Below, in pieces: positions 7,525-37,678 of a DNA stretch of 44,077 bases. How positions within the stretch are numbered: the stretch's first letter is position 1; each line of letters opens with the position of its first letter. The translations under genes and the position numbers were made by a program. The DNA is taken from positions 1 to 44,077 of IMG/VR virus record IMGVR_UViG_3300047507_000002, one strand, 5' to 3'. The stretch comes from a virus (taxonomy: Duplodnaviria > Caudoviricetes). The notes under the pieces are model-generated. The model saw nothing but the letters and a program-made list of their open reading frames with translations, ran no database searches and had not been told where the DNA came from.

Positions 7525-7599
7525 TATGACCTCACTTAATTTTAAGCAAGGTGGGTACGAGATAATGTCTCGTACCCACGATTGCACAAAATTCTTATA

Positions 7600-20837: not shown

Positions 20838-22286
20838 TCAACCTCGCCATGTATTAGAATAAGAAACCTTGATTCCCTGAGTCCCTGATTTATATTGAGT
20901 AAACCCGAAATTCGCCTTGCATGCAGCCATTACTAAATCGTCATGTGAGCCTTCGGCTGCCTCCATCCTACCGTTTTCGCCAATCTGGAAGGCAAAAAAC
21001 TCCTTGATTGCGGGGATATAGTGAATTTTCACCCCACTTCTTATCGCCTTCTCCATCTCTATGAGGTCTTTATCCCTTGTTCTTCCACTTTCTATATAAC
21101 CTAACTTCTCTCTTTTCTTGTCAGAGCAGTAAATCTTCCCTTTATCATATCCTAAAGCCACCAAATCACCTAAATAAGTAGTCCCGAAGGCATCGGCACC
21201 GCCGATAACTCTCGGACAGTAGTATTCTTTTAGTAATTCATGGCTCATAAAGGCAAAGGTATCGGGTAAAATCTGATTGGAATGAATCACGGCACACAAT
21301 TCTCGGCTTAAACCGTCTTTCCCCTCTATCCAGAGGACGGAATAATCTCCACCACGTCCTTCCGCCATGTCCACACCAGCGATATACTGGACTCCGACCT
21401 TCGGATGATGATAGATATGAATAACACCTTGACGAATTTCCTCTTCTTTAAGGGCTTCTTGCTGAAGTTTCTGGAGAATACCAGCGTCAAAGACTGTTCT
21501 TCCTGTAATCGGGCTTAATGCCTCTTCTTCTGTCTTGGGATAGTCTGCCTTAAACTGCCACTCTAAGTAATAGTCTCTTTTAACTCTCTCGAACCACTCA
21601 TTATTTCTACTGGGAACGGCATCACAAGGAATGAAAATTGGATAAAAGTTATTTCTCCCTGCTCTAGCCTCTCGCCAAAGTGTCTTGAAATGAGAGTCTA
21701 AAATAGTCGGGTCGGCGGTTGAAACGACAATCCCGTGTGCCCCTGCATCTATTGTGGGTTTAAGATGTGCCCAGTTTTCTTTAGCGTTAGGGTGAAACTC
21801 ATTCTCATCCCAGATTACTAACGAAGCAGTCTCACCTACTCCTGCGTATTCCGTTGAGGGTAAAGTATGAATCCGACTGTGTTTCCCCTCAAAATCAATC
21901 GAGAATACGCTATCGTGCCCTGTTTTCAGTTGAAGATACTTCGGTAACTGGCTATAAATAAACTTCGCCTTTCTTAATAACTCCGCAGCCTCAGTCTCCC
22001 CCTTGGAAATCATAATCACATTCCCGCCTGTCTTATAACACCACCAAATCGCTATTGCTGCTAGAGTCCATGAAATCCCAACCTGCTTACTTTTAAGAAC
22101 GATTATTTGAGTGTGTTCACAAATCGCCTTGATAAACTCTACTAAATGAGGCCACATCACATACTTGATAATCTGATTCGTGGTGGCATCCAAAATCTTG
22201 ACATACTCAAAGAACTTTAACGGATTAAGTATGTCTATCTTCTGGCCTATCTGCTCTATGATGGGAAGTTCTGTTTCAGTTGGCAT
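20838..22286 (-). CDS. terL: Terminase large subunit
   Basis: Walker A-like LKSKQVGIS, Walker B VIWDE, nuclease motifs GVDMAEG and HDDLVMA. Confidence 0.95.
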   Translation of the reverse strand: MPTETELPIIEQIGQKIDILNPLKFFEYVKILDATTNQIIKYVMWPHLVEFIKAICEHTQIIVLKSKQVGISWTLAAIAIWWCYKTGGNVIMISKGETEAAELLRKAKFIYSQLPKYLQLKTGHDSVFSIDFEGKHSRIHTLPSTEYAGVGETASLVIWDENEFHPNAKENWAHLKPTIDAGAHGIVVSTADPTILDSHFKTLWREARAGRNNFYPIFIPCDAVPSRNNEWFERVKRDYYLEWQFKADYPKTEEEALSPITGRTVFDAGILQKLQQEALKEEEIRQGVIHIYHHPKVGVQYIAGVDMAEGRGGDYSVLWIEGKDGLSRELCAVIHSNQILPDTFAFMSHELLKEYYCPRVIGGADAFGTTYLGDLVALGYDKGKIYCSDKKREKLGYIESGRTRDKDLIEMEKAIRSGVKIHYIPAIKEFFAFQIGENGRMEAAEGSHDDLVMAACKANFGFTQYKSGTQGIKVSYSNTWRG

Positions 22287-22389
22287 TGCTTACCTATTAT
22301 AGAAAAAAGACCAATCAACCTTTAACTGCATTACTCTCCACGTATTCGCCCTTAAATATACAAATGGCGTCTTGAATAAAATCACTAAT

Positions 22390-22635
22390 CTAAAATATGC
22401 TTTTATATTTTCCATCTTGTTGAAGGAATCCATAATTGTGCCGCCTCAGTTGTCCCGTTGCTCGACTATCCCTAAACCAACCAAGTTCCCATATATTCCC
22501 CTTTATGTGGTGGAATCGCCAAATGTGAACCAAACCACAATCACAACAAGCGTCACTAATAACGGTTCTGCCTAAATCTATCCTTATCATTGCCCCATTC
22601 TTAAACTTTGGATATTTAGTTCGATTTGTTGCCAT
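22390..22635 (-). CDS. Small Cys/His metal-binding phage protein
   Basis: ACCDCGLVH motif; GAGG SD. Confidence 0.7.
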   Translation of the reverse strand: MATNRTKYPKFKNGAMIRIDLGRTVISDACCDCGLVHIWRFHHIKGNIWELGWFRDSRATGQLRRHNYGFLQQDGKYKSIF

Positions 22636-22654
22636 ATATGCTTTGTACCTCTTT

Positions 22655-22733
22655 GGGCAGGGCTGGTGTGCTTACTCACGCCATTTGACGGAGTGTGCTG
22701 AGACTTTTTTCCCGCCAGTCTTGCACCCTGCCT
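22655..22733 (-). ncRNA. Candidate structured RNA, three-way junction (copy A)
   Basis: Stems GGCAGGGT/GCCCTGCC, AGACT/AGTCT and TGG-GTG/CAC-CCA; homologous to 30193-30262. Confidence 0.55.
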
Positions 22734-22762
22734 TTAAAACGACTACCTGTCACTCAATTTAT

Positions 22763-22834
22763 TTGCGGGTCTGGGGGTTGAACCCAGTCCTCTAGTTTAT
22801 GAGACTAGCAACTTAACCGTTTGCCCTACCCGCT
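22763..22834 (-). tRNA. tRNA with CAT anticodon (Met/fMet-like or Ile2), atypical
   Basis: AGCGGGT...CTAGT-CTCATAA-ACTAG...CTGGG-TTCAACC-CCCAG-ACCCGCA-A; no encoded CCA. Confidence 0.85.
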
Positions 22835-22937
22835 ATACCTTTCAAACGGTAAATGATTTCCTACATCTTTAGCTTTGACGGTACCTTTTATTGCCCAAAA
22901 GGTTGGTTTTGTCGGCGGAAGAATCAAGTCTCTTTGC

Positions 22938-23246
22938 CTACCCCTTTGGATTTTGGGGTCTGTGTTTCCAGCACCAAGCAGCAAAACCCACCCTGAACCA
23001 ATGATAGCCCCAGATAAGTCCACCTATTAGAATATTAAAGGGCATAGGAGCCATGAGTAATCTATTTTTAGGTAAGTCAGCATACGCAACACCATACCCT
23101 CTAGGATATTGAATCATCTCTGCTTCATGGTAATCAGACCAAAACAGGAATGGCCTTTTAGGAAGAACAAATTCTATCCTGACTTTATCCCCAACCTGTT
23201 CATCCTTCTTTGTGCATATCGGATAATATACTGATACCTCTAACAT
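22938..23246 (-). CDS. Hypothetical protein
   Basis: 102 aa; AGGAGG SD; hydrophobic C-terminal part. Confidence 0.7.
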   Translation of the reverse strand: MLEVSVYYPICTKKDEQVGDKVRIEFVLPKRPFLFWSDYHEAEMIQYPRGYGVAYADLPKNRLLMAPMPFNILIGGLIWGYHWFRVGFAAWCWKHRPQNPKG

Positions 23247-23361
23247 TCGCCTCCTTACTTTACATAATTACTATTTCTAATTCTGGGGTTGGCGTTTTGT
23301 AAACGAGGTTCGCTATATATCGTTGTTGTTGTTTTTATTGGTATGGTATTCATTGTTGATA

Positions 23362-23451
23362 TTAAAGAAGCCAGCGAAGGAAAAGAATCAAGCCATAGAT
23401 AGCAGAGACGCAGAGGCAGAGCATAAGAATAGCTATAATGATTCTCTTCAT
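23362..23451 (-). CDS. Putative 29-aa membrane peptide
   Basis: MKRIIIAILMLCLCVSAIYGLILFLRWLL; ATGA overlap with the TerS stop; below the ORF-track cutoff. Confidence 0.45.
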   Translation of the reverse strand: MKRIIIAILMLCLCVSAIYGLILFLRWLL

Positions 23452-23810
23452 TCGATTGTCCTGACCTCGCCCTCTATCACCTTGGGAAGCAAGGCTCTAT
23501 TGGCTATCTGGAACCGTTCTATTAGAAGGTCTATCTGGTCTGCACTCAACTGTATTGTCTGTGTTACATCAAGGCTAACTGATTGCACAGGCTTGCCCAG
23601 TCTCCTATTAAGCAGCTCAATTGCACTCTGTAAGGCTACTGTGTCGGCTGTATAGAGTCCAGTAGGTTCGTTACAATGAGGACAGATAACTTGCTTACCT
23701 TTAGACCACTCCTGAAGGTTGTGGATGATTTGTTCAATGTTAATATCCTGTATTGCATCTCTTAACTGTCTACCAGGCTTCTTTTTTCTACCAGAGCCTA
23801 TACCACCCAT
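23448..23810 (-). CDS. Terminase small subunit-like protein
   Basis: N-terminal GGIGSGRKKK and AIELLNRRLGKPVQSV motifs; upstream of TerL; contains a CPHC insert. Confidence 0.65.
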   Translation of the reverse strand: MGGIGSGRKKKPGRQLRDAIQDINIEQIIHNLQEWSKGKQVICPHCNEPTGLYTADTVALQSAIELLNRRLGKPVQSVSLDVTQTIQLSADQIDLLIERFQIANRALLPKVIEGEVRTIE

Positions 23811-23934
23811 GTATAACTATCCTTTATATATATAATAAAATAATTCATTAGATATATATAATTAATTAATAAGGATTAATAAATTAAAGGGCACACTATA
23901 ATTATATAATAAATATAAATAATAATAAAGAATA

Positions 23935-24093
23935 CTATTTCTTCCTTTTAACTCTTTTTGGTAGTCCTTTAGGAGACTGACCTTTAACATACTCGCAAGC
24001 TACCTTCTTAGACGGTAAGCCTTTACGTCTTTTAATACCACCCGTGCAGACTCCCTTCATAAGTTTGAATTGTTGTTTTGACTTCGCAGGCAT
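23935..24093 (-). CDS. Small basic protein (MPAKSK, DUF3008-like)
   Basis: MPAKSKQQFKLMKG...KGLPKRVKRKK, 52 aa; TAATG coupling to the upstream gene; not in the ORF track. Confidence 0.7.
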   Translation of the reverse strand: MPAKSKQQFKLMKGVCTGGIKRRKGLPSKKVACEYVKGQSPKGLPKRVKRKK

Positions 24094-24329
24094 TATTTCC
24101 TCTTCCTACCAGCAGCAGACATTTGAGCCATCTTCTTGGTACCGTATTTCTTACGACCTATAGTAGCAGCCACCGCAGCAGGATTCCTTGCTCCACGTTT
24201 AGCAATCGCCTTTGTTAAAGTCTTGAACCGCCCACCTTGCCCTAACGGTGCTGGCGTGCCTTTGATAACATAGCTTGAACCTTTTGTTTTTTGCGCTCTC
24301 GCCGATGTTCTTTTTACTACTCTTTGCAT
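24093..24329 (-). CDS. Small highly basic phage protein
   Basis: GGRFK...NPAAVAATIGRKKYG...AAGRKRK; GAGGTG SD. Confidence 0.8.
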   Translation of the reverse strand: MQRVVKRTSARAQKTKGSSYVIKGTPAPLGQGGRFKTLTKAIAKRGARNPAAVAATIGRKKYGTKKMAQMSAAGRKRK

Positions 24330-24408
24330 AGTTTCACCTCACATTTTATATCTAATTAGGAATTTTGTTCTAATTTTATCCTTGAAGCTAATTGAAACAC
24401 TTGTTCTA

Positions 24409-24437
24409 TTGACAAGTTAGAGAGAGAGATTTAGACT
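24409..24437 (+). promoter_or_regulatory. sigma70-type promoter of the rightward early cassette
   Basis: TTGACA-N17-TAGACT. Confidence 0.8.
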
Positions 24438-24443
24438 TAAGCA

Positions 24444-24454
24444 GTTCTTTAACA
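24444..24454 (+). promoter_or_regulatory. boxA-like antitermination element
   Basis: GTTCTTTAACA at the predicted transcription start (rrn boxA consensus TGCTCTTTAACA). Confidence 0.65.
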
Positions 24455-24503
24455 ACTGAATATAGCAGGCGAGGCAGGCAGGGTAAAAGGAGATAAGACC
24501 GAG

Positions 24504-24701
24504 ATGGCAAACTTAGCAAATTTAGTAAAAGCGTTCCGAACTAATGTCCGAGAAGGCAACCCTTGTGAGATGAGATTTGATGGTGAGACCATCCAGCTCT
24601 ACCCTCTATTAAAACCCAATCATTCTGAAAACGACATTGGGGTTTGGAATAGAACTCGTGTGGGAATGGTAACAAAGCCTAGTAGTCCCAGAAAAAGCTA
24701 A
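24504..24701 (+). CDS. Hypothetical early protein (enclosed by an inverted repeat)
   Basis: 65 aa; AAGGAG SD; first gene after the promoter. Confidence 0.7.
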   Translation: MANLANLVKAFRTNVREGNPCEMRFDGETIQLYPLLKPNHSENDIGVWNRTRVGMVTKPSSPRKS

Positions 24702-24799
24702 GCCCCTAACAGCCCTGACCTCGCCCTCTATATCCAGAGGTTAAGAATACTCATAAGACCGAAGCGAGTCCAGCTCGGCAGAGTAAGGGAGAAAGGAAA

Positions 24800-24997
24800 A
24801 TGGAATCTATAAGAACTCTTAACAAGCTTCTCAGAGAAAACGGGTTAAGCGAGAATACAGAGGTAACACGCTACAAGGGCAAATATCATTTACTGCACAT
24901 TTGCGGAAATGGTGTACCCGTTCCCCTAATAATCAGCACAGACATCAAGGAAATCAAAGACCATATTGAAATATATCTTTTAGAGAAGTCAAAATAG
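24800..24997 (+). CDS. Hypothetical early protein
   Basis: 65 aa; purine-rich SD. Confidence 0.7.
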   Translation: MESIRTLNKLLRENGLSENTEVTRYKGKYHLLHICGNGVPVPLIISTDIKEIKDHIEIYLLEKSK

Positions 24998-25065
24998 CTA
25001 TAGAGCGGGTTTGAAACCACGCTTCCTCTAGCACATAGCCAATAAGATAAAAGGAGGGAAAGGAA

Positions 25066-25269
25066 ATGACAATAGAAACTCAAGGAAAGCCAAATTGTCA
25101 ACTCACGGGTGAAGACGGGAATGTGTTTGGCCTAGTTGGTAAGGTATCCAAGACGCTCAAACGAGCAGGACAACCAGACAAGGCAAAGGAAATGGCGGAC
25201 AGAGTATGTAAGTCTGGCAGTTATGCCGAAGCAATCGCCATAATGGGCGAATATGTAGAAATCTCATAA
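25066..25269 (+). CDS. Conserved small phage early protein
   Basis: KPNCQLTGEDGNVFGLVGKV...SGSYAEAIAIMGEYVEI, a recurrent phage/MGE family; AGGAGG SD. Confidence 0.8.
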   Translation: MTIETQGKPNCQLTGEDGNVFGLVGKVSKTLKRAGQPDKAKEMADRVCKSGSYAEAIAIMGEYVEIS

Positions 25270-25309
25270 GTCCTGACCTTCATGGCAGGCTGAGAAGAAG
25301 AGGAAACAG

Positions 25310-25624
25310 ATGAAAATTAAAAGTACATTACAACAGTATGGAACAGGAAGGGGATGGTTTATTACCTGCCCCAAGTGTAATACAAAGTTTGTAAGTAACA
25401 AGAAAGGGGTTTTCCGTTGCAATGGCATGGAATATAAAGACTGCCCATTTTGCAATGATAAGCCAGAACTTACAACAAGGGGGTTCAAAATGTTATGCAA
25501 GCTCTACTCACCCATCTGCGCATCAAATGACGAAGTCCAACGCTATTACAATGGCGATAAACAATGGACTGTCTGGACTTTTTCTGGCATAAAAGGCGAG
25601 TATCACAAGAAGGAGGAGAAATGA
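25310..25624 (+). CDS. Zn-ribbon protein
   Basis: CPKC and CPFC motifs. Confidence 0.7.
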   Translation: MKIKSTLQQYGTGRGWFITCPKCNTKFVSNKKGVFRCNGMEYKDCPFCNDKPELTTRGFKMLCKLYSPICASNDEVQRYYNGDKQWTVWTFSGIKGEYHKKEEK

Positions 25625-25800
25625 AATGTTGGGAATGTAAGAGACAAACAAACACAGCTGGTCGGGTTTGCTATACCGATGGCAGAGAAGAAAAGGTTAG
25701 GGATGTTTGCCCTAGCTGTCTAAATCTTCTCACTCTCAATCCTTGCCATTATGCCGAAGTTAAAACGATAACCCAAAGACAGATAAAGGGGAGGGTATAA
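25621..25800 (+). CDS. Small Zn-finger protein
   Basis: MKCWEC...CPSC; GGAGGAG SD before ATG 25621. Confidence 0.7.
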   Translation: MKCWECKRQTNTAGRVCYTDGREEKVRDVCPSCLNLLTLNPCHYAEVKTITQRQIKGRV

Positions 25801-25973
25801 TGAATGACTTTATAGGTTCATTTGAGGCTTTCTTAAAGAAAGAAAACCCTAATGTTTGCCTCACTTGTTGGGGAGAGGGTAGATTAATAGAGGTGTTACC
25901 AATAACGGGATTTAGACATGACATCGAGTGTCCTGCCTGTAAGGGGACCGGAAATATAAAGGAGGTCAAATGA
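25800..25973 (+). CDS. Small DnaJ-type Zn-finger protein
   Basis: CLTCWGEG...CPACKGTG, 57 aa, coupled to both neighbours; not in the ORF track. Confidence 0.7.
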   Translation: MNDFIGSFEAFLKKENPNVCLTCWGEGRLIEVLPITGFRHDIECPACKGTGNIKEVK

Positions 25974-26164
25974 ACAAAGAAGAAATATCTAAACTGTTAA
26001 AGCTCCCGTTTCCCGAACTGGCAAGGATATGCCAGAGTCCTGAGACTTTAGCAAGTGTGTTAAGCCTCGCTATTAAGATAGGGATAGGTTTAGGTCAGAA
26101 GAAAACTTGCGAAGATTATGGCAAGGCGTTCAGAGGATATACTAAAATCTTATTGAGTAATTAA
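25970..26164 (+). CDS. Hypothetical protein
   Basis: 64 aa; AGGAGG SD. Confidence 0.7.
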   Translation: MNKEEISKLLKLPFPELARICQSPETLASVLSLAIKIGIGLGQKKTCEDYGKAFRGYTKILLSN

Positions 26165-26171
26165 AGGAGGT

Positions 26172-26510
26172 ATGAATATGTATACAAAAGGAGAATGGAA
26201 GAGTAGGGAGGAAAGAGATGGGTTGGCTGCCGAGGTAATAGAGAATGATAAGGGTGTATCAATAGCCTTAATCTTATCCCTTGATGATTCTATGAAGCCC
26301 TTGCCACCAGATGAGGTTAAGGCCAATGCTCACCTAATCGCAGCAGCACCAGAGAATTACGAGATGAACTCGGAAACCCTAAGGCTGTATAGATATTTAA
26401 GAGACTACGAAGAGGCATTATGGAATCAATTAATAGATGTTTGCCCTGGCATAATAGACCATTGGGATAGGATTAAGAAGGCTCTAGCCAAAGCCGAAGG
26501 CAAAGAATGA
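26172..26510 (+). CDS. Hypothetical phage protein (ANAHLIAAAPE family)
   Basis: YTKGEW...ANAHLIAAAPE...ALAKAEG motif widespread in phage early genes. Confidence 0.8.
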   Translation: MNMYTKGEWKSREERDGLAAEVIENDKGVSIALILSLDDSMKPLPPDEVKANAHLIAAAPENYEMNSETLRLYRYLRDYEEALWNQLIDVCPGIIDHWDRIKKALAKAEGKE

Positions 26511-26592
26511 TAATCTTAATACTAAGTCTAGCATTCGGGTTCGGTGTAGCTTTCGGTATTATGCAATACTGGGAACGCTGAAAGGAGGGAAA

Positions 26593-26823
26593 ATGAAAAG
26601 TATTACCAAAGATGATTTTCTTATCAAGACCACTCCAGCTTCTAATGCTGTCCTCTACTGGAAACATAATAGACAACGAATCCAACTTTTCAAAAGTGGA
26701 GACCCCATCAAGCGAGCAATTAAATTCAGGGATTGGTTAATTAGATGGTATGCTCACGAGAACTACAAAATGGATTCACAGAGGCATATCTATCAAGACC
26801 AAGTCAAAACAGGAGGGGATTAA
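26593..26823 (+). CDS. Hypothetical protein
   Basis: 76 aa; AGGAGG SD. Confidence 0.7.
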   Translation: MKSITKDDFLIKTTPASNAVLYWKHNRQRIQLFKSGDPIKRAIKFRDWLIRWYAHENYKMDSQRHIYQDQVKTGGD

Positions 26824-26833
26824 CTGCCCCTCT
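26812..26833. terminator. Hairpin at the convergence of two operons
   Basis: GAGGGG-N8-CCCCTC between converging genes; weak U-tracts. Confidence 0.45.
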
Positions 26834-26848
26834 TCGTTATCACCTTCA

Positions 26849-27103
26849 TCATCTTGATTCCTTAATGTTTTGCCATACCCACCACGTTATTAATACCCCA
26901 ATCGTGGAGAATATGACTAGCAGTGTCATCGAAACCGCAAAAACGAATACCCGCCCTTTGTCGTAAACTAACGCCACGTAAAAAGCCAATGGCGTTGATA
27001 TTGCCACCAAGATTACATCTACTAGCTTTATCAGCAACCATTTGCGAGTTTTCTTGTCTCGCCATGTTGCTTGGAGGCTCTTGAGTATGTGGAGGCTCAT
27101 CAT
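26849..27103 (-). CDS. Two-TM membrane protein (holin-like candidate)
   Basis: Two hydrophobic helices, basic N-terminus; GGAGG SD. Confidence 0.55.
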   Translation of the reverse strand: MMSLHILKSLQATWRDKKTRKWLLIKLVDVILVAISTPLAFYVALVYDKGRVFVFAVSMTLLVIFSTIGVLITWWVWQNIKESR

Positions 27104-27290
27104 TAACCTCCGTTAGTTCATTATACATTTTTAGGTTTGCCTCTTCTGTATTTGCGGTGTTTATGGGGAATTTCGTTATAACTACACTGGCTACCAAGTC
27201 GTAACTGTAAATTGTTAAGGCGAGGCATTGAATACATCGCCATTAAAGCTGATATTGTATAGAATGTTGAGATATTCATCGCAGTATTAT

Positions 27291-27539
27291 TTACTCTGAT
27301 TGCAGTATTAAGTACCTCCAGAGTGATTCGGTCATAGTCCAATCAGTACACCAATAATCACCATAGTCAAACCACGCTGCTAAAGGGAAATACTCAGCAG
27401 GTTTATCTTCCACAATCTCATACTTTATACCTTCGGGAGGGTAAGTTTTTATCTTTGCTGTTGAATGTCTCCTCCGAATGGCTAATATTAGAAGTCCTGT
27501 TAAAATTCCTAGAAGAAAACCAAGCAAGTAACTAAACAT
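27291..27539 (-). CDS. N-terminally anchored membrane protein
   Basis: Hydrophobic N-terminus followed by RRRH; GGAGG SD. Confidence 0.6.
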   Translation of the reverse strand: MFSYLLGFLLGILTGLLILAIRRRHSTAKIKTYPPEGIKYEIVEDKPAEYFPLAAWFDYGDYWCTDWTMTESLWRYLILQSE

Positions 27540-27623
27540 TTATCCTCCCTTTTTAAGGCACGCATACAGGACACCCGCATCCTTTTAAGACAATCACACA
27601 GATAGTCAATAGACACAGCCATA

Positions 27624-28445
27624 CTATGAAGAAAGCCTTTTCTTTATCTTCCATAATATCGCCACAGGCCAGAATGAACAGCCAGGATTCCCTTCACCCC
27701 TGCCTTCTGTTATCTCGTCTAGGAAAGCATCGAGTTTCACCACGTCTATCGGAGAATCGCCAACCCAATCATCTTTATTGTCCACGATTCCATACGCCTC
27801 ATCTACTCTATCATCCCAAAACGCCCAAGTCAATCTCTGTCGTTTCCCCCATGTCATACAGGTTATACCATATTCGTCATAAGCGTAGGCATGAAGATAA
27901 ACTCCATGTCCGCCTAGTAAATTACCACTATAAGGCATTATATCCCATACTTCGCCAGCCTTGAACTGCTCCATGTCCCGTTCATAAACCTTCATCCCGA
28001 AGTTCACTCCACCGAGTAAATGAATACAATGCTTCACTTCGTCGTGGTCTTTCCAGTCCACCGAAGCAAAGGCATAAATTGTATAAGCCTTACCACCGAT
28101 TAGCCAGCCATCATTACGCCACGCCTTTAGGCTATTAAGAAGATACAAACCACTATCGGCTCCGCCCGATTCCTTGAAGTATTCGTCAACAACTTCTTGG
28201 TCTGTAATCGGAATCTGCCAACCTTGCTCGAACGCTTCAAACCTCAGGGTGTGATGTCCCCTAGCAGCAATAACACAATCTCCATACTGGTCATTGCCAT
28301 ACATAAAGTTATCCTCTACCCCTAGAACCTCATCTAAGTCATAGATAGTAGGCAACTCAGGGAGTAATTCCTTTCTGAGAATAGCTTTAAGAGGGATTGT
28401 TCTTTTATCTATTACCGCAGGCAGTTTTCCTAGTTTTAATTCCAT
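27624..28445 (-). CDS. Papain-like (C1-type) cysteine peptidase
   Basis: GNDQYGDC (catalytic Cys), GGHGV (His), TWG motif. Confidence 0.75.
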   Translation of the reverse strand: MELKLGKLPAVIDKRTIPLKAILRKELLPELPTIYDLDEVLGVEDNFMYGNDQYGDCVIAARGHHTLRFEAFEQGWQIPITDQEVVDEYFKESGGADSGLYLLNSLKAWRNDGWLIGGKAYTIYAFASVDWKDHDEVKHCIHLLGGVNFGMKVYERDMEQFKAGEVWDIMPYSGNLLGGHGVYLHAYAYDEYGITCMTWGKRQRLTWAFWDDRVDEAYGIVDNKDDWVGDSPIDVVKLDAFLDEITEGRGEGNPGCSFWPVAILWKIKKRLSS

Positions 28446-28446
28446 A

Positions 28447-28743
28447 TTACCTCGCTACTAACAGAATAATCGCACCTATGAACGCACCAAGTATGAAATC
28501 CCAGAAGTCTAAATATCCTTCATCATCTTTTCTATTCCAACTTATATTCCAGTGCATATAGAGTATAAAGTTCACAATGGATTGCCACAGTTCAAACAGT
28601 CCGAAGGCTATGAATAGAGTTATAGAAAGTCCTGAATAATGAGGATATAGAAGAGCACAGATTAAACCGCCAGAAATGTGCCAGGGAACAGTAAACTTCC
28701 GTGTAAAATGTTCCCCAGCCCACTTCCATAGGTCATTTAACAT
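28447..28743 (-). CDS. Small membrane protein
   Basis: 98 aa, about 3 hydrophobic segments; WHISGG...FELWQ...DFWDF. Confidence 0.7.
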   Translation of the reverse strand: MLNDLWKWAGEHFTRKFTVPWHISGGLICALLYPHYSGLSITLFIAFGLFELWQSIVNFILYMHWNISWNRKDDEGYLDFWDFILGAFIGAIILLVAR

Positions 28744-29138
28744 TAGAACACCGCCTTAATCACTCCTGGTGAAGCAGCACGTAACTTTTCTTCTTCGTTA
28801 AAACTCGGTGGTGCAATGACAGCACTAGTTAGGCCAACTGTCCAATCAATCAACGTGCTGGATGGTACAAAGCGAACCAGTAACCCCACATCAAAGGCCT
28901 TTGCCAAGTCTTTTAGCGTATTCAATGTATACTTACCATAGTTTGGGTTTTCCCATGATGAAACTAAGGGCTGTTTCACACCCAATAACTGGGCAAGCTC
29001 AGACTGCTTTAGGTTCTGTCGATTTCGAAGCGAACGAATCTGGAAAGCAATACCTACGTTAATATGCTCGTCAATAAACTGTTCACGGAAATCTTTGTCT
29101 CTCAAGTTTTCCCACATTTGTTCCTGTTTAGAGTTCAT
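28743..29138 (-). CDS. XRE-family HTH protein (HigA-antitoxin-like)
   Basis: IAFQIRSLRNRQNLKQSELAQLLGVKQPLVSSWENPNYG...TLKDLAKAFDV. Confidence 0.85.
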   Translation of the reverse strand: MNSKQEQMWENLRDKDFREQFIDEHINVGIAFQIRSLRNRQNLKQSELAQLLGVKQPLVSSWENPNYGKYTLNTLKDLAKAFDVGLLVRFVPSSTLIDWTVGLTSAVIAPPSFNEEEKLRAASPGVIKAVF

Positions 29139-29149
29139 GCTCCCTCCTA

Positions 29150-29326
29150 GCTTTTTCTAAGAAGCTGGAAAACCACGAATACGCTTTGGCTCTTTATTTC
29201 ATGCATTATAACTTCGCTCGGCCACATAAGACTTTATCTAATCCTTATCCAAAATCACCGGCAATGGCAGCAGGATTAACTAATCACGTTTGGACGATTG
29301 AAGAAATTGTAAGATTGGCTGAGTGA
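29150..29326 (+). pseudogene. C-terminal remnant of an IS1-family transposase
   Basis: Translates AFSKKLENHEYALALYFMHYNFARPHKTL...SPAMAAGLTNHVWTIEEIV*, the characteristic IS1-family C-terminus; the N-terminal and catalytic parts are absent. Confidence 0.8.
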
Positions 29327-29335
29327 GATTAGAAT
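29307..29335 (+). promoter_or_regulatory. Putative sigma70 promoter for the downstream tRNA
   Basis: TTGTAA-N17-TAGAAT ending 8 nt before the tRNA. Confidence 0.6.
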
Positions 29336-29343
29336 ATAAATAC

Positions 29344-29417
29344 CCGCCAGTAGCTCAGTTGGATAGAGCACCTTCCTACTAAGTCGGTGGTCATGGGTTC
29401 AAGTCCCATCTGGCGGG
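29344..29417 (+). tRNA. Arg-type tRNA body with ACT anticodon and mismatched anticodon stem (variant or pseudo-tRNA)
   Basis: CCGCCAG TA GCTC AGTTGGATA GAGC A CCTTC CTACTAA GTCGG TGGTC ATGGG TTCAAGT CCCAT CTGGCGG G. Confidence 0.8.
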
Positions 29418-29586
29418 CACGCATTATAAAGGAATGCCACTCCTCAATGGTATTCATAAATTCGTGAATATCAATTACTACGCCTTTTAGGATTTTCATT
29501 GAAGTTCAAGAGGAGCTAGCTCGGCTTCTTATCAGCGACCCGCCGATGTTGGTTTCATCAACCTAATCGCACACTAGCCCAATTAT

Positions 29587-29754
29587 CTAATCATTAAGAT
29601 TTAACATCTTGGCAACAGGTGGAAGAACCCAAATGGCACTTAGAAGGGCTACAAAGATGTCTTTGATTACCACTTCCGCAGGAATGAATTTAGCCACTAG
29701 TATAATCCCTGCTACAAGAAACCCTGTTACAATCGCTTTTGATTTGTCTTCCAT
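29587..29754 (-). CDS. 55-aa two-TM membrane protein (holin-like candidate)
   Basis: MEDKSKAIVTGFLVAGIILVAKF...IFVALLSAIWVLPP; AGGAGGT SD; not in the ORF track. Confidence 0.6.
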   Translation of the reverse strand: MEDKSKAIVTGFLVAGIILVAKFIPAEVVIKDIFVALLSAIWVLPPVAKMLNLND

Positions 29755-29855
29755 TTTACCTCCTTATTATTTTAATCAAAACCCTCTTTAAGCGAGGGTG
29801 GATAAATTCATGCCATAGAGTACAGGCCACAACACAGATAGGAATACACCACCAT

Positions 29856-30176
29856 TCAATCATCTTCCGTGCAATACTGCTCAATTAAAAGTTGGGAGTC
29901 TTGATACAAATCCTCTAACACAGTTGGGATTAGGTTATCAGTTCCGCAATGTTCCAAGAGCGTTAAAACCACATCACAACGATTCCTTATAGACTTTATA
30001 ATCTCAGCTAATTCATCAGTATCCATACCATTGATGGTTGTATCGCCTACCATTGCTTCAGGATAGCTTGTACTTGTTTTCCAATTAGTAAGCGTAGTAG
30101 AGTTATCCATAAGAGCAGATGAACAAACACAATTCTTAAATTCTCTATTACATCCTCGGCAGATTACTTTTGGCAT
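29856..30176 (-). CDS. Hypothetical protein with N-terminal Cys cluster
   Basis: CRGC...CVC; AGGAG SD. Confidence 0.7.
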   Translation of the reverse strand: MPKVICRGCNREFKNCVCSSALMDNSTTLTNWKTSTSYPEAMVGDTTINGMDTDELAEIIKSIRNRCDVVLTLLEHCGTDNLIPTVLEDLYQDSQLLIEQYCTEDD

Positions 30177-30192
30177 TTATATCTCCTGAAGG

Positions 30193-30262
30193 AAGGTAAG
30201 GGCTGGCTTATGCTTATCCCATTATTGCAGAGGCTTCGCTTTCGCCTTGCTGCCCTCACCCC
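30193..30262 (-). ncRNA. Candidate structured RNA, three-way junction (copy B)
   Basis: Stems GGTGAGGGC/GCCCTTACC, AGGC/GCCT and TGG/CCA; lies in the 5' UTR after the promoter at 30289-30317. Confidence 0.55.
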
Positions 30263-30288
30263 ATAATTAATCATACACCTCATTGTCA

Positions 30289-30317
30289 AGTCTAACATCT
30301 TCTATTTTTAATGTCAA
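30289..30317 (-). promoter_or_regulatory. sigma70-type promoter (extended -10)
   Basis: TTGACA-N17-TAGACT with TG at the extended position. Confidence 0.75.
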
Positions 30318-30392
30318 ATTAACTATAAAATCTCTATAAAATGGCAATAATTAAGTTTTAATTTCCCCTGAAAAGCGTTCTTTTACGCCGTT

Positions 30393-30647
30393 TTATATCC
30401 CCCATTCCTTGAGCTTGGATTGCCACCCTCTCTCAGAAAGAATGATATAGTCTTTCTCTCCTAGATGACGATGTTGTTCTACCCACTCCCTCACTTCCTT
30501 CAACATAAAGTTTCTGCCAGCCTTAAAACTGATTTCAGCTAATAATTCCTCTCTTTCCCTTAGTCCTGCAAGAGTGCCATTATTTAATACTTCTATAGAA
30601 ATTTTACTGGTAGCTTCCTCAATACAAGTTGTTAATTTAGATTCCAT
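30393..30647 (-). CDS. Small hypothetical protein (LKEWGI paralog family)
   Basis: AEISFKAGR...WQSKLKEWGI; AGGAGG SD. Confidence 0.75.
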   Translation of the reverse strand: MESKLTTCIEEATSKISIEVLNNGTLAGLREREELLAEISFKAGRNFMLKEVREWVEQHRHLGEKDYIILSERGWQSKLKEWGI

Positions 30648-30658
30648 ATTCCCTCCTT

Positions 30659-31273
30659 TTATTTTCTTGCCTCCTTTAAAAGATTTTCTAAAATGCTAAT
30701 TCTATTTTGTAACGCCTTTACATAAGTCCCCCTATCATGTTTCGCTGGCGGAACAGCCACAAGGTTTTCCAGGCGATTATCTGTTCTAATTCCGTTAAGG
30801 TGATGAACATACCACTTTTCAGGGATTTTACCATGAGCTTGTTCCCATACAAAGCGGTGCTCTAAAATATATGCATAACCTTTCTTGTAATGAGGATTAG
30901 GGTTTTTCATCGCTATATACCCATCTTTACTTATAAATTGATTGTCGTTTAATCTTGGGATAGTTCGTTTAGCTTTTCCCGCACATTTGTGACATCTCAA
31001 GCCACGCCCCCTAGAAGTAGGGATACCACAATCCATGCAATAAGATTGGGGCTTGCGAAATTGAACACCAGCACAGGGACAACACCTTGTCCCCTTATAA
31101 CTTATAAGTTTCCCACAATCCAAACAAGGATGTCTATGCTTTTTGAGCCACTCTTTAGTTCTAAGTTTTGCCTCTTCCTTATGTGTTTCCCTATATCCCT
31201 TGCTGTATTTATCAAGTCTATCTTTATTCTTGAGATAATAACGTTTATTATATTCACTCTTGTTCTTATCCAT
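30659..31273 (-). CDS. HNH endonuclease with Zn-ribbon repeats
   Basis: EHRFVWEQAHG...VHHLNGIRTDNRLENL; several CxxC pairs. Confidence 0.9.
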   Translation of the reverse strand: MDKNKSEYNKRYYLKNKDRLDKYSKGYRETHKEEAKLRTKEWLKKHRHPCLDCGKLISYKGTRCCPCAGVQFRKPQSYCMDCGIPTSRGRGLRCHKCAGKAKRTIPRLNDNQFISKDGYIAMKNPNPHYKKGYAYILEHRFVWEQAHGKIPEKWYVHHLNGIRTDNRLENLVAVPPAKHDRGTYVKALQNRISILENLLKEARK

Positions 31274-35788: not shown

Positions 35789-36958
35789 TTAACCCCAATT
35801 CATAACTGTTGTATAAACTTTTGACATTTCATTCCGTTGGAATTTTTCGGATAGCTTTCTCATTACAGCAACTTTATCAAGCCTTATATCTATTTCTATT
35901 GCCCTATACTCAATTAATACTCTTTCTCTAAAAGCAAGTGTGTCTTCAACTATCTTAATGCAGGACTCAATTAAATAATGGTTTGCCTCGACCTTATGAG
36001 CTTCAAATTCCTCTAGTAAAAGCTGTTTTATGAAATCCACTGTGAGTTTATCGATGTTCTCTAGAGCATTCCAACAAGTCGCCAAGATGGAATTCCTTGA
36101 AATACCTTTGCCTTGAGAAAAATGGATTATCTCGATAGTCTCTGGTTTACATTTGTATTGAATAGTCCTTTTGTCTATAGTTTGGAGATACCAAACAGCA
36201 CCTTCTACGCCCGCATAAGTGTTATTGTCCAGTTTCCGTAAGTTGCCTTCTAATTGTTTTTGAAGGGCAAGGTAAGAATCTTCGTAGTTTTTATCTATAG
36301 TAGCTAGCAACTGCACTTTGGATAATCGGCAATCTATTTGTGTCGGAGGGATGATATTTCCTGCGTTTGTTACGCCAAATAAAAGAGCATACGCCAATGG
36401 CACATCATAAATAACAAGGTGAGGATTCCGTGCTCCATATAATTCAAAGGATAAGTTAAAATTATGGCTGGTGAGCAACTCGCAGATATAATCAAAATCA
36501 TTATCTGCAACTTCATTCCACATAGCAAAAAAGTTACCCCATTTTGAGCCAGCATTAACAAAGGGCATCAACCTCGTTTTACAAGTGTAAAAAATAGTGT
36601 TCCCATCAGTGTAGGAATAAACAAGTATGTTTGTGCCGTCCAGTTTCTCAAAGATTTCTATTTTATTGGCAACAGGGAAACCATACTTTCTTTCACCTGT
36701 CTGTGTGGTAGTAAATGGGTAGTGCATTTTGGGCGTTCCCATAATAAGTTGTTCTTTGACTGGGATTCCATTGATGTGAGTAATTATCAACGCTCCATAA
36801 TATTCAGTTGCCCTTCTGGAAATATATCCCCTAACTTCGTTTTGCGGATTGAAGGGGTCTATCTCACAAAATTCATGGTAGTCTTTCCCAAATAATTCTT
36901 CGACTTTCATTCCTTCTTCCTGAGTCATACTAGCTCCATTACTTCTTGCCTTCTTCAA
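35789..36958 (-). CDS. ATP-dependent RNA ligase (Rnl family)
   Basis: Nucleotidyltransferase motifs I (EKLDGTN), III (FELYG), IV (EGAV) and V (YKCK); no OB domain apparent. Confidence 0.85.
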   Translation of the reverse strand: MKKARSNGASMTQEEGMKVEELFGKDYHEFCEIDPFNPQNEVRGYISRRATEYYGALIITHINGIPVKEQLIMGTPKMHYPFTTTQTGERKYGFPVANKIEIFEKLDGTNILVYSYTDGNTIFYTCKTRLMPFVNAGSKWGNFFAMWNEVADNDFDYICELLTSHNFNLSFELYGARNPHLVIYDVPLAYALLFGVTNAGNIIPPTQIDCRLSKVQLLATIDKNYEDSYLALQKQLEGNLRKLDNNTYAGVEGAVWYLQTIDKRTIQYKCKPETIEIIHFSQGKGISRNSILATCWNALENIDKLTVDFIKQLLLEEFEAHKVEANHYLIESCIKIVEDTLAFRERVLIEYRAIEIDIRLDKVAVMRKLSEKFQRNEMSKVYTTVMNWG

Positions 36959-37229
36959 CTGTTAGCCCCAGTTCTTTGACTATAAACTCCAACTCATCTA
37001 TGGTTCTTGCAGGGCGAATACGAAACATCGTGGTAGATTTCTCGCCTTTCTTATCAAATATAAGATTACGAACACGCCATTCCTTTTCAATGACACAGCT
37101 ATTGGCATAAATAGACTTTCGCATATCTGCTACGCACTTTTGTCTATCAATCTCCGACATCCCAGGAGCGGGACAAATACAATCCGCTCTAAGTAAATCT
37201 TGCCCCTGTCTCTCCATAGGGTTAGTCAT
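36939..37229 (-). CDS. Hypothetical protein
   Basis: 96 aa, coupled to both neighbours. Confidence 0.65.
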   Translation of the reverse strand: MTNPMERQGQDLLRADCICPAPGMSEIDRQKCVADMRKSIYANSCVIEKEWRVRNLIFDKKGEKSTTMFRIRPARTIDELEFIVKELGLTVEEGKK

Positions 37230-37678
37230 TTAATCTCCTGTCTAACTGGAATATCAGGTTCAAAAAATCCCAGTTTGCCTTTCATTGGTATCGGCTTGTC
37301 ATAAAGAATAGGATTAGCCAGCAAAAGACCATACATACCAACCTCATGCCAGACTGAATAGATATGTGGGTCTTTGGCCGAGGGATTGCGATATTGACAG
37401 CCGATAATATCAACCTCACCGATGATTGCTCCCTTCACTAGACTTCTATAAAAGTCCTCAGTGCGTATCATGTCCCAAATCTCCGTGGATACTCTGTGAT
37501 GAATAAAATTCCATGCCCCATCATCTATGACCTTGCTGGCGTGAATATAAATCCGTCTTGGCGTGGCTGGATAATTCAAAAGCGGCGGCATATGAATATG
37601 CCAAGTGCGATTCTCCACATCTTTAATCCCTTTACAGATTAACCATGCCCAGGGTTGCTTAATACTGAGTGCTTTCAT
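37226..37678 (-). CDS. ASCH domain protein
   Basis: MKALSIKQPWAWLICKGIKDVENRTW...IHAS...GAIIG...KGKLGFF. Confidence 0.92.
   Translation of the reverse strand: MKALSIKQPWAWLICKGIKDVENRTWHIHMPPLLNYPATPRRIYIHASKVIDDGAWNFIHHRVSTEIWDMIRTEDFYRSLVKGAIIGEVDIIGCQYRNPSAKDPHIYSVWHEVGMYGLLLANPILYDKPIPMKGKLGFFEPDIPVRQEIK

Follow-up and report, generated by a model that had tools for sequence, protein, structure and literature searches.

A three-way-junction RNA motif outside Rfam in a sediment phage, one form of which probably derives in part from RNase P RNA

The closest described counterpart of the RNA reported here is type-A RNase P RNA (RF00010), which is about 350-400 nt long and in which a contact between P12 and L13 is named in the available part of PMC2275092. 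In the list given in PMC3494683, loop 182-188 of 1U9S is GNRA-like, and we infer that this loop is L13. Small, intergenic, covarying RNAs without known function have also been described as orphan structured RNAs of phages (PMC10690425, in the parts available), and the element resembles them in all of these respects; four motif strings were absent from three supplementary files of that paper, although its motifs may yet overlap with the element. The available parts of bioRxiv 10.64898/2026.09.22.753630, PMC12990946 and PMC8457005 contained nothing specific to the element.

We analysed a window of 44,077 nucleotides, positions 1 to 44,077 of IMG/VR virus record IMGVR_UViG_3300047507_000002, in which a first-pass annotation had placed two copies of an unrecognised three-way-junction RNA. 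Both minus-strand elements, A and B, together with their common sequence blocks, were present where they had been placed (Table 1). The annotation had called for an Rfam cmscan, and neither element matched an Rfam family; the motif is a structured RNA absent from Rfam 15.

Table 1. Coordinates of the two elements and of neighbouring features in the window.
Feature	Position	Strand	Remarks
Copy A (A-type), three-way-junction motif	22656..22732	-	81.5 bits with model R1, whose training set included copy A
A, P1 5' strand	22725..22732, partner 22663-22656	-	8 bp
A, variable P2 domain	22687..22720	-	positional equivalent of RNase P P12; alternative registers possible
A, AAA junction and P3 hairpin	22664..22686	-	resembles RNase P J12/13-P13-L13
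Copy B (B-type)	30194..30261	-	P1 of 10 bp (30261-30252 paired with 30203-30194), short P2, degenerate P3
tRNA, CAT anticodon	22762-22835	-	ends ~30 nt before A
81-aa ORF after A	22390..22635	-	no Pfam or PHROG match
Terminase large subunit	20838-22286		next after the 81-aa ORF
sigma70-like promoter upstream of B	30289..30317	-	TTGACA-17-TAGACT, extended -10; consensus match only
106-aa ORF after B	29856..30176	-	no Pfam or PHROG match

Taken alone, the folding z-scores of the two elements are modest (-2.28 for A and -1.82 for B, in the tightest cuts), and it is the recurrence of the motif in other genomes, where its stems show compensatory changes, that leads us to place it beyond chance. The closing stem, P1, which had been described as changing in sequence while continuing to pair, shows covariation in 5 of 9 pairs, and the P3 hairpin does so in 1 of 7; the covariation score was reached by none of 500 shuffles, and RNAalifold recovers P1 and P3 unaided. 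In three B copies the outer P1 sequences differ with pairing kept, and G.U pairs on the sense strand occur in both P1 and P2. Across 13 A copies the tail is 96% identical, versus 40% for the P2 interiors, and the chance level for a relaxed descriptor is 0.075 matches per 371 kb. These data support a conserved three-way-junction RNA outside Rfam, with an element length of 70-110 nt. The compensatory middle stem proposed previously (AGAC/GTCT versus AGGC/GCCT) holds in some copies but not in general: that stem appears in the minimum-energy folds only of window copy A, L246 and window copy B, and in the other A copies the same strand is paired elsewhere. P3 of copy A has 7 bp, including a C.A pair, and a 6-nt loop containing GUAA. 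The P3 of B differs from it, and B scores 11.2 bits (E 1.6) with a covariance model built on A copies only; B is likely a derived form in which the junction core was kept and P3 rebuilt.

Beyond the two window copies we found 16 A-type copies, 2 B-type copies and one divergent candidate (C), many of the metagenome copies lying on contigs with neighbouring ids and hence not being independent. The extra A-type copies are located in phages, in sediment contigs and, in three cases, within one Dehalococcoidia MAG. Model R1 matched a single genome, G001, both among 150 genomes and among 101; an exact pattern hit two genomes in a set of 202, G605 among them. A copy of B that is 94% identical across 67 nt is present in the phage G614, which yielded no tblastn match to the window ORFs and is thus a carrier without a common protein. 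The closest terminase relative has no copy of A or B. The source of the window is a sediment phage that carries both forms of the element, of which only the A-type is likened to RNase P.

BLAST against plasmids returned nothing, and against phage records a 26-nt match within a primase gene in 2 records. Contigs aligned to 22200-30700 contained no A variant among the matches listed, and a search of sequencing runs listed no RNA run as a carrier. When the register of the first-pass annotation was used as a pattern, it hit 36 viral loci in 8 distinct contexts, none of them a homologue on inspection, and additional viral patterns gave no new members, one match (L421) being a genuine RNase P gene. 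A loose tail pattern hit 179 of 401 Dehalococcoidia genomes, its reversed control often matching too, and none of 30 inspected loci was a member. Groups sharing the tail (the L126 group, L152/L153 and L155/L037/L096) were dropped, as they have no 5' core.

Reciprocal profile tests match the 3' half of the A-type form to a part of type-A RNase P RNA that comprises the P12 bulge, J12/13 and P13/L13. Both present, in the same order, GUGC(A), a variable helix, an AA run (in some of the A copies), AAA, a 7-bp hairpin with a GUAA loop and then GC, and pair 4 of P13 alternates between U-A and C.A in the element and RNase P alike. Of 23 Chloroflexota RNase P RNAs with P13, 19 scored 12.1-26.9 bits with the element profile, whose blocks were picked after the likeness had been noticed; at most 1 of 200 shuffles reached the scores of those 19, and the background maximum was 13.1. 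The median for RNase P was 24.7 bits in the order of G001 (Dehalococcoidia; n=30) versus 11.5 in other phyla (n=16). With the reciprocal profile, 11 of 14 A copies scored above all background (380 kb); window copy A, at 9.9 bits, lies within background, and B was not among the listed matches. An AA run stands at the P12-bulge position in 10 of 17 A copies, and in 7, including window copy A, it is absent with the loop kept.

The element is nevertheless not an RNase P, because the catalytic domain, P14 and both tRNA-elbow T-loops are missing. It is far shorter than RNase P RNA and has a closing P1 of its own; L13 of RNase P has 7 nt, whereas the loop of the element has 6 in most copies and is offset from L13 by a fixed shift. 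The hairpin resembling P13, with its GUAA-containing loop after AAA, is confined to the A-type and does not occur in the C candidate or in B, which does not match RNase P RNA. Of the motifs by which membership of type-A RNase P is judged, UG..A was seen in none of 17 A copies and AG..A in none of 15. RNase P was never among the matches of the Rfam scans, the RF00010 gathering score not being reached, and neither nhmmer (best E 0.9-3.3) nor covariance models (13 bits, E 0.55) gave a significant likeness. Conserved regions of the catalytic domain gave scattered one-mismatch matches only, at window 16316 (+) and 6892 (-), neither of them close to A or B. Weighing these sequence comparisons, we consider it probable that a Dehalococcoidia-type RNase P RNA was the source of the A-type 3' half, its P12-P13 region having been captured.

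The neighbourhood of the copies is variable. The tRNA(CAT) that had been reported upstream of A was confirmed, and the same pair of tRNA and element occurs in L065, where 60-bp direct repeats flank the block. Three of 17 A copies have ACCA after P1, and neither ARAGORN nor Rfam called the elements tRNA-like. Elsewhere the element is found between ORFs, ahead of a terminator-like hairpin or on G001 contigs that are not phage-like. The promoter claimed for B is the top-listed site of our scan, about 28 nt above the element, but the scan as a whole returned 20 sites versus 22.6 expected. Each element had also been said to precede the Shine-Dalgarno sequence (SD) of a small Cys-containing gene; SDs are indeed found at +7 and +12 nt, but the link to Cys is at background level, CxxC occurring in 4 of 11 downstream ORFs versus 28 of 145 background small ORFs. 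The suggestion of a metabolite riboswitch is unsupported, because downstream homology is lacking (blastp of the 11 ORFs downstream of copies found no homologous pair), the distance to the SD varies (+7 to +124 nt, with none found for some copies) and a terminator-like hairpin follows one copy and a tRNA one candidate; nor do the copies have a common expression platform.

Tentatively, we propose that this is a mobile three-stem motif, likely derived from rnpB, whose fold, predicted to be compact, may serve phage transcripts in cis as a roadblock to nucleases. Capture of the P12-P13 region would have supplied the A-type 3' half; P3 would stack on P1, and the GUAA loop of P3 would dock on P2 as L13 does on P12 in RNase P. 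Such a fold could stall a 5'-to-3' exonuclease, e.g. RNase J; mRNA that lies downstream of a promoter, or of a tRNA that has been excised, would then be spared, and where a terminator follows, a small stable RNA would be left over. All five Dehalococcoidia genomes examined had a match above cut-off to TIGR00649, the RNase J family. A roadblock alone does not explain the 30 invariant bases, because a plain hairpin could stabilise RNA too. The host of the phage is uncertain: among 138 terminase relatives, named ones are labelled Zixibacteria (86%), WOR-3 (79%) and Dehalococcoidia (69%), and in the order of G001 a relative at 35-37% was found in just 2 of 201 genomes.

We regard as doubtful an action in trans, by which a small RNA cut from the phage transcript would mimic the surface that P12/P13 form in the RNase P RNA of the host and either sequester a host factor, or a defence nuclease, that recognises this surface or pair with RNase P. 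The invariance of P3 at the sequence level, the best match being to Dehalococcoidia RNase P, the long P1 joining both ends, the position of copies beside tRNAs or before a terminator-like hairpin and the lack of a common phage protein would all suit such an RNA. It sits less well with the loss of the P13 likeness in B and the C candidate, where the junction core is kept, or with the fixed shift relative to L13, and no host factor binding P13 is known to us. A specific version, in which Dehalococcoidia phages and islands excised the P12-P13 subdomain, without tRNA binding or catalysis, and the free RNA passes for RNase P before a host factor or defence nuclease, seems to us unlikely.

A new class of self-cleaving ribozyme, splitting polycistronic phage RNA, is improbable. 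The patchy, multi-copy, intergenic distribution among unrelated small genes, the three-way junction with a predicted loop-helix contact and the independence from any phage partner are in keeping with one, but the A, B and C forms have few unpaired bases in common, no ribozyme family in Rfam matched even at E 10, and copy A does not abut the end of the tRNA but stands about 30 nt away. Possible likenesses to Pistol, twister, twister-sister, hatchet and TPP had no Rfam support. The HDV-like fold requires conserved sequence 3' of P1. Theta (HDV-like) ribozymes, as described in the available parts of PMC10879173, are likewise small structured RNAs near phage tRNAs, as are 2 A copies and the C candidate; the element differs in having no family match and no conserved sequence 3' of P1, and most copies have no tRNA nearby.

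Two further readings we hold to be quite improbable. The first, modelled on the put-/nut-like antitermination family, is that the element serves in cis, at the head of late transcription units, as a site for RNA polymerase or a regulatory protein of the host. The positions of B, shortly after a strong promoter-like site, and of A, ahead of the terminase gene, accord with this, whereas the placement of the other copies, and the absence of A and B from the closest terminase relative, do not. The second is a passenger or recombination linker, a scrap of rnpB spread by cassette shuffling without any RNA function. The repeat-flanked block in L065 and the non-independence of many metagenome copies speak for it; the compensatory changes in P1 and P3, the sense-strand G.U pairs and a tail conserved beside a freely varying P2 speak against it. 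That the element is a riboswitch binding a ligand, for instance a variant of c-di-GMP-I (RF01051), is very improbable: two adjacent helices at a junction are common to both, B is superficially alike in a P2 starting GC-AA and GAAA in its loop, several copies lie 5' of SDs and 28 of the 101 Dehalococcoidia genomes scanned contain c-di-GMP-I, but the lower P2 stem is absent from the element, Rfam gave no match, and the c-di-GMP-I profile scores -9.9 on A and -9.4 on B versus 23.7-64.8 for 30 true members.

In the open-access papers that we searched, we found no published case of an RNase P subdomain reused as a mobile module. If the proposed origin from RNase P RNA is true, the A-type form would represent a subdomain of an ancient ribozyme that was lifted out naturally and reused as a mobile module, and it would offer a minimal model for the L13-P12 contact. 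At a size of about 80 nt, the element is directly testable.

Copies A and B of the three-way-junction motif both exist as the first-pass annotation described them, each with its closing stem (P1; 8 bp in A, 10 bp in B), and their placement was borne out: the tRNA(CAT) ends about 30 nt before A, and B sits downstream of a sigma70-like site that was top among the sites listed in the promoter scan. At gathering thresholds, Rfam called two tRNAs only in the whole window, and searches with A and B each, up to E 10, returned, apart from the adjacent tRNA, only matches that were weak and unrelated. The motif is genuine, and no Rfam family covers it. No description of it appeared in the literature searched, which was covered mostly as listings, nor did four motif strings occur in the three supplements of PMC10690425 that were searched; that paper's files 1, 2 and 4, together with three of larger size, may bear on novelty.

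Features of the window and of related loci
Feature	Record	Position	Strand
Copy A	window	22656-22732	-
P1 of A	window	22732-22725 with 22663-22656	-
Copy B	window	30194-30261	-
P1 of B	window	30261-30252 with 30203-30194	-
Terminase large subunit	window	20838-22286	
Inverted repeat	window	7538-7593	
Hairpin and CCAA(C/A)CTT-like stretch	window	~22915-22880	-
Promoter-like site 1	window	24409-24437	+
Small-ORF cassette	window	24504-26823	+
HTH gene	window	28743-29138	
ACT tRNA block	window	29153-29418	+
Short ORF tail	window	29201-29326	
Promoter-like site 2	window	30317-30289	-
RNA-ligase-like and ASCH-domain proteins	window	35789-36958; 37226-37678	-
Second structured element	L060	~1372-1447	+
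Direct repeats	L065	591-629/1204-1242; 1281-1340/1707-1769	-
Linker	L247	8520-8560	
Candidate junction	L247	8704-8783	+
R1 match	L407	592-687	-

To find relatives, we searched with the conserved 3' part (tail) and with covariance models. The tail pattern matched 71 loci in viral sequences, two of them members (L060, B-type; L065, A-type), and a second viral pattern matched two, one a member (L246). In metagenomes (59 of 64 parts) there were 120 matching loci, which fall into 93 distinct contexts. Among them were 12 of the A type, one being the L065 contig again; many metagenome copies carry contig ids adjacent to one another and are not independent. Both members among 41 GTDB loci lie in one Dehalococcoidia MAG (G001), where R1, a model whose training included copy A, added a third (L323). 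The A-type total is 17 with window A counted; one copy is truncated where its contig stops, and another has a decayed 5' part. L407 scored 30.7 bits with R1, but is GC-rich, pre-selected by pattern and without the loop. L152 and L153 represent another repeated element, present twice on a single contig; it has the tail pattern in common with the motif and not the 5' core.

The A-only model gave B 11.2 bits. The two types are linked by common sequence blocks, and also by a pair of loci with the same outer P1 and upstream flank, of which L246 has the A core and L060 the B core. A third B copy, in run X6 (56 nt, 5 letters differing), has unrelated flanks, and these still pair as outer P1. Phage record G614, which may be incomplete, carries B at 94% identity and had no protein match to the window; any partner of the motif is therefore likely to be either the RNA itself or the host. 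In L247, the closest terminase relative (80%), copies of A and B are both absent. Its three-way junction, just 5' of a tRNA-Tyr and in the matching region, has the GGTGCA and CCAGCC ends of the motif and a 9-bp P1, with a P3 (3' hairpin) unlike P13 of RNase P RNA; a descriptor loosened after this junction had been noticed gives 0.075 chance matches per 371 kb, and we therefore rank it as a candidate, C-type copy.

Among 13 aligned A copies, both sides changed at 5 of 9 pairs in P1 and at 1 of 7 in P3. No shuffle of 500 reached the covariation score, a count that is not a probability since shuffling ignores the relatedness of copies, and slid registers paired at most 47%. RNAalifold, unaided, predicted P1 and P3. 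Pairing of the variable stem P2 reaches 67% in the register that we name, and identity between copies is 40% in its interior versus 96% in the tail. The compensatory AGAC/GTCT middle stem proposed earlier forms in folds of window A, window B and L246, whereas elsewhere the strand pairs differently. The noted link to Cys-containing genes does not stand out: CxxC was without clear enrichment in ORFs downstream of motif copies. There was no blastp match among 11 such ORFs (at least 25 aa).

The surroundings of the copies vary, as does SD distance. A terminator-like hairpin follows L223, and 60-bp repeats enclose a tRNA and element block in L065, where direct repeats flanking this block and an HNH gene duplicate a neighbouring gene end or start. 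Going by raw translations, the G001 copies lie between genes whose products are either large and apparently secreted or ATPase-like, and one motif-bearing contig has an integrase-like ORF as well. In L060 a second structured element (closing stem CCTGAGC/GCTCAGG) lies immediately upstream of the motif, and its 3' end recurs in L246, where that contig terminates. Ahead of the element or tRNA, small hairpins and a CCAA(C/A)CTT-like stretch recur in L177, L194, L209, L214, L219 (just 5' of P1), the window and L065; one such hairpin also resembles a general P13 stem. A recurring intergenic linker (AAATAGTAATTATGTAAA-like or TTTTACAATTATGT-like), possibly a promoter or cassette boundary, stands ahead of small-ORF SDs in the related contigs L142, L177, L194, L209, L214, L219, L229 and L247.

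The window, a 44,077-bp virus record, has direct terminal repeats, and its DNA occurs in freshwater sediment metagenome runs, two of which may be where it came from. Its ACT-anticodon tRNA, encoded on the other strand from the late genes, is adjoined by an HTH gene and by a short ORF tail that is matched by many unrelated contigs and resembles an IS transposase end; this region is probably an inserted block. The two promoter-like sites have identical hexamers, and the first heads the small-ORF cassette. The RNA-ligase-like protein (PHROG 562, E 7e-8) and the weak ASCH-domain protein had no tblastn match among those other carrier records that were examined. Between structural-region genes lies an inverted repeat that is long and imperfect.

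The 3' half of the A form reads much like G001 RNase P RNA 3' of P12 (AA bulge, J12/13, P13), a likeness noticed before it was tested. A gapped profile of this half was run on 23 Chloroflexota RNase P RNAs that bear P13. For 19 of them it gave 12.1-26.9 bits, a score equalled by no more than 1 of 200 shuffles (3-14 of 200 for the remaining four); the background maximum was 13.1, and seven RNAs without a P13-like hairpin gave at most 1.3. In 380 kb, where the highest background score was 11.7, the reciprocal profile, from 21 RNase P blocks only, gave 15.6-27.4 bits to 11 of 14 A copies; window A (9.9) and L223 (10.4) fell below that maximum, and L249 and B were not among the matches listed. The median RNase P score was 24.7 in the G001 order (n = 30) versus 11.5 in other phyla (16 of 17 extracted), a difference whose significance is overstated because the genomes are related. 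L342, the RNase P RNA of unpublished G559, entered the profile tests, and no conclusion rests on it. Of 28 parsed RNase P RNAs, 25 have U-A and 3 have C.A at P13 pair 4; in the motif, the matching pair is C.A in 11 copies of 13 and U-A in the other 2. Counting against the link are nhmmer (E 0.9-3.3), a covariance model (13 bits) and the post hoc choice of profile blocks. On these comparisons, RNase P RNA is the likely origin of the A form.

The motif is not itself an RNase P: both T-loop cores of the tRNA-elbow module (PMC3664808) are absent from A-type copies, the P14 of type-A RNA is missing, and the copies have no catalytic-domain landmark in their vicinity. A P12-L13 contact is named in PMC2275092, and PMC3494683 classes a 7-nt loop in the specificity domain of type-A RNA as GNRA-like. 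As the motif loop keeps GUAA and 10 of 17 A copies have an AA run, predicted docking as L13 on P12 is plausible. That the motif serves as an RNase P decoy, one of two main rival readings, seems to us rather doubtful, and that it is a new ribozyme, the other, quite improbable. A c-di-GMP-I variant was rejected on testing.

We tentatively favour, at well short of an even chance, a compact fold that is predicted to block 5'-to-3' decay. Such a block would fit every position seen and require no phage protein, and TIGR00649, an RNase J-type family, is present in five of five Dehalococcoidia genomes.
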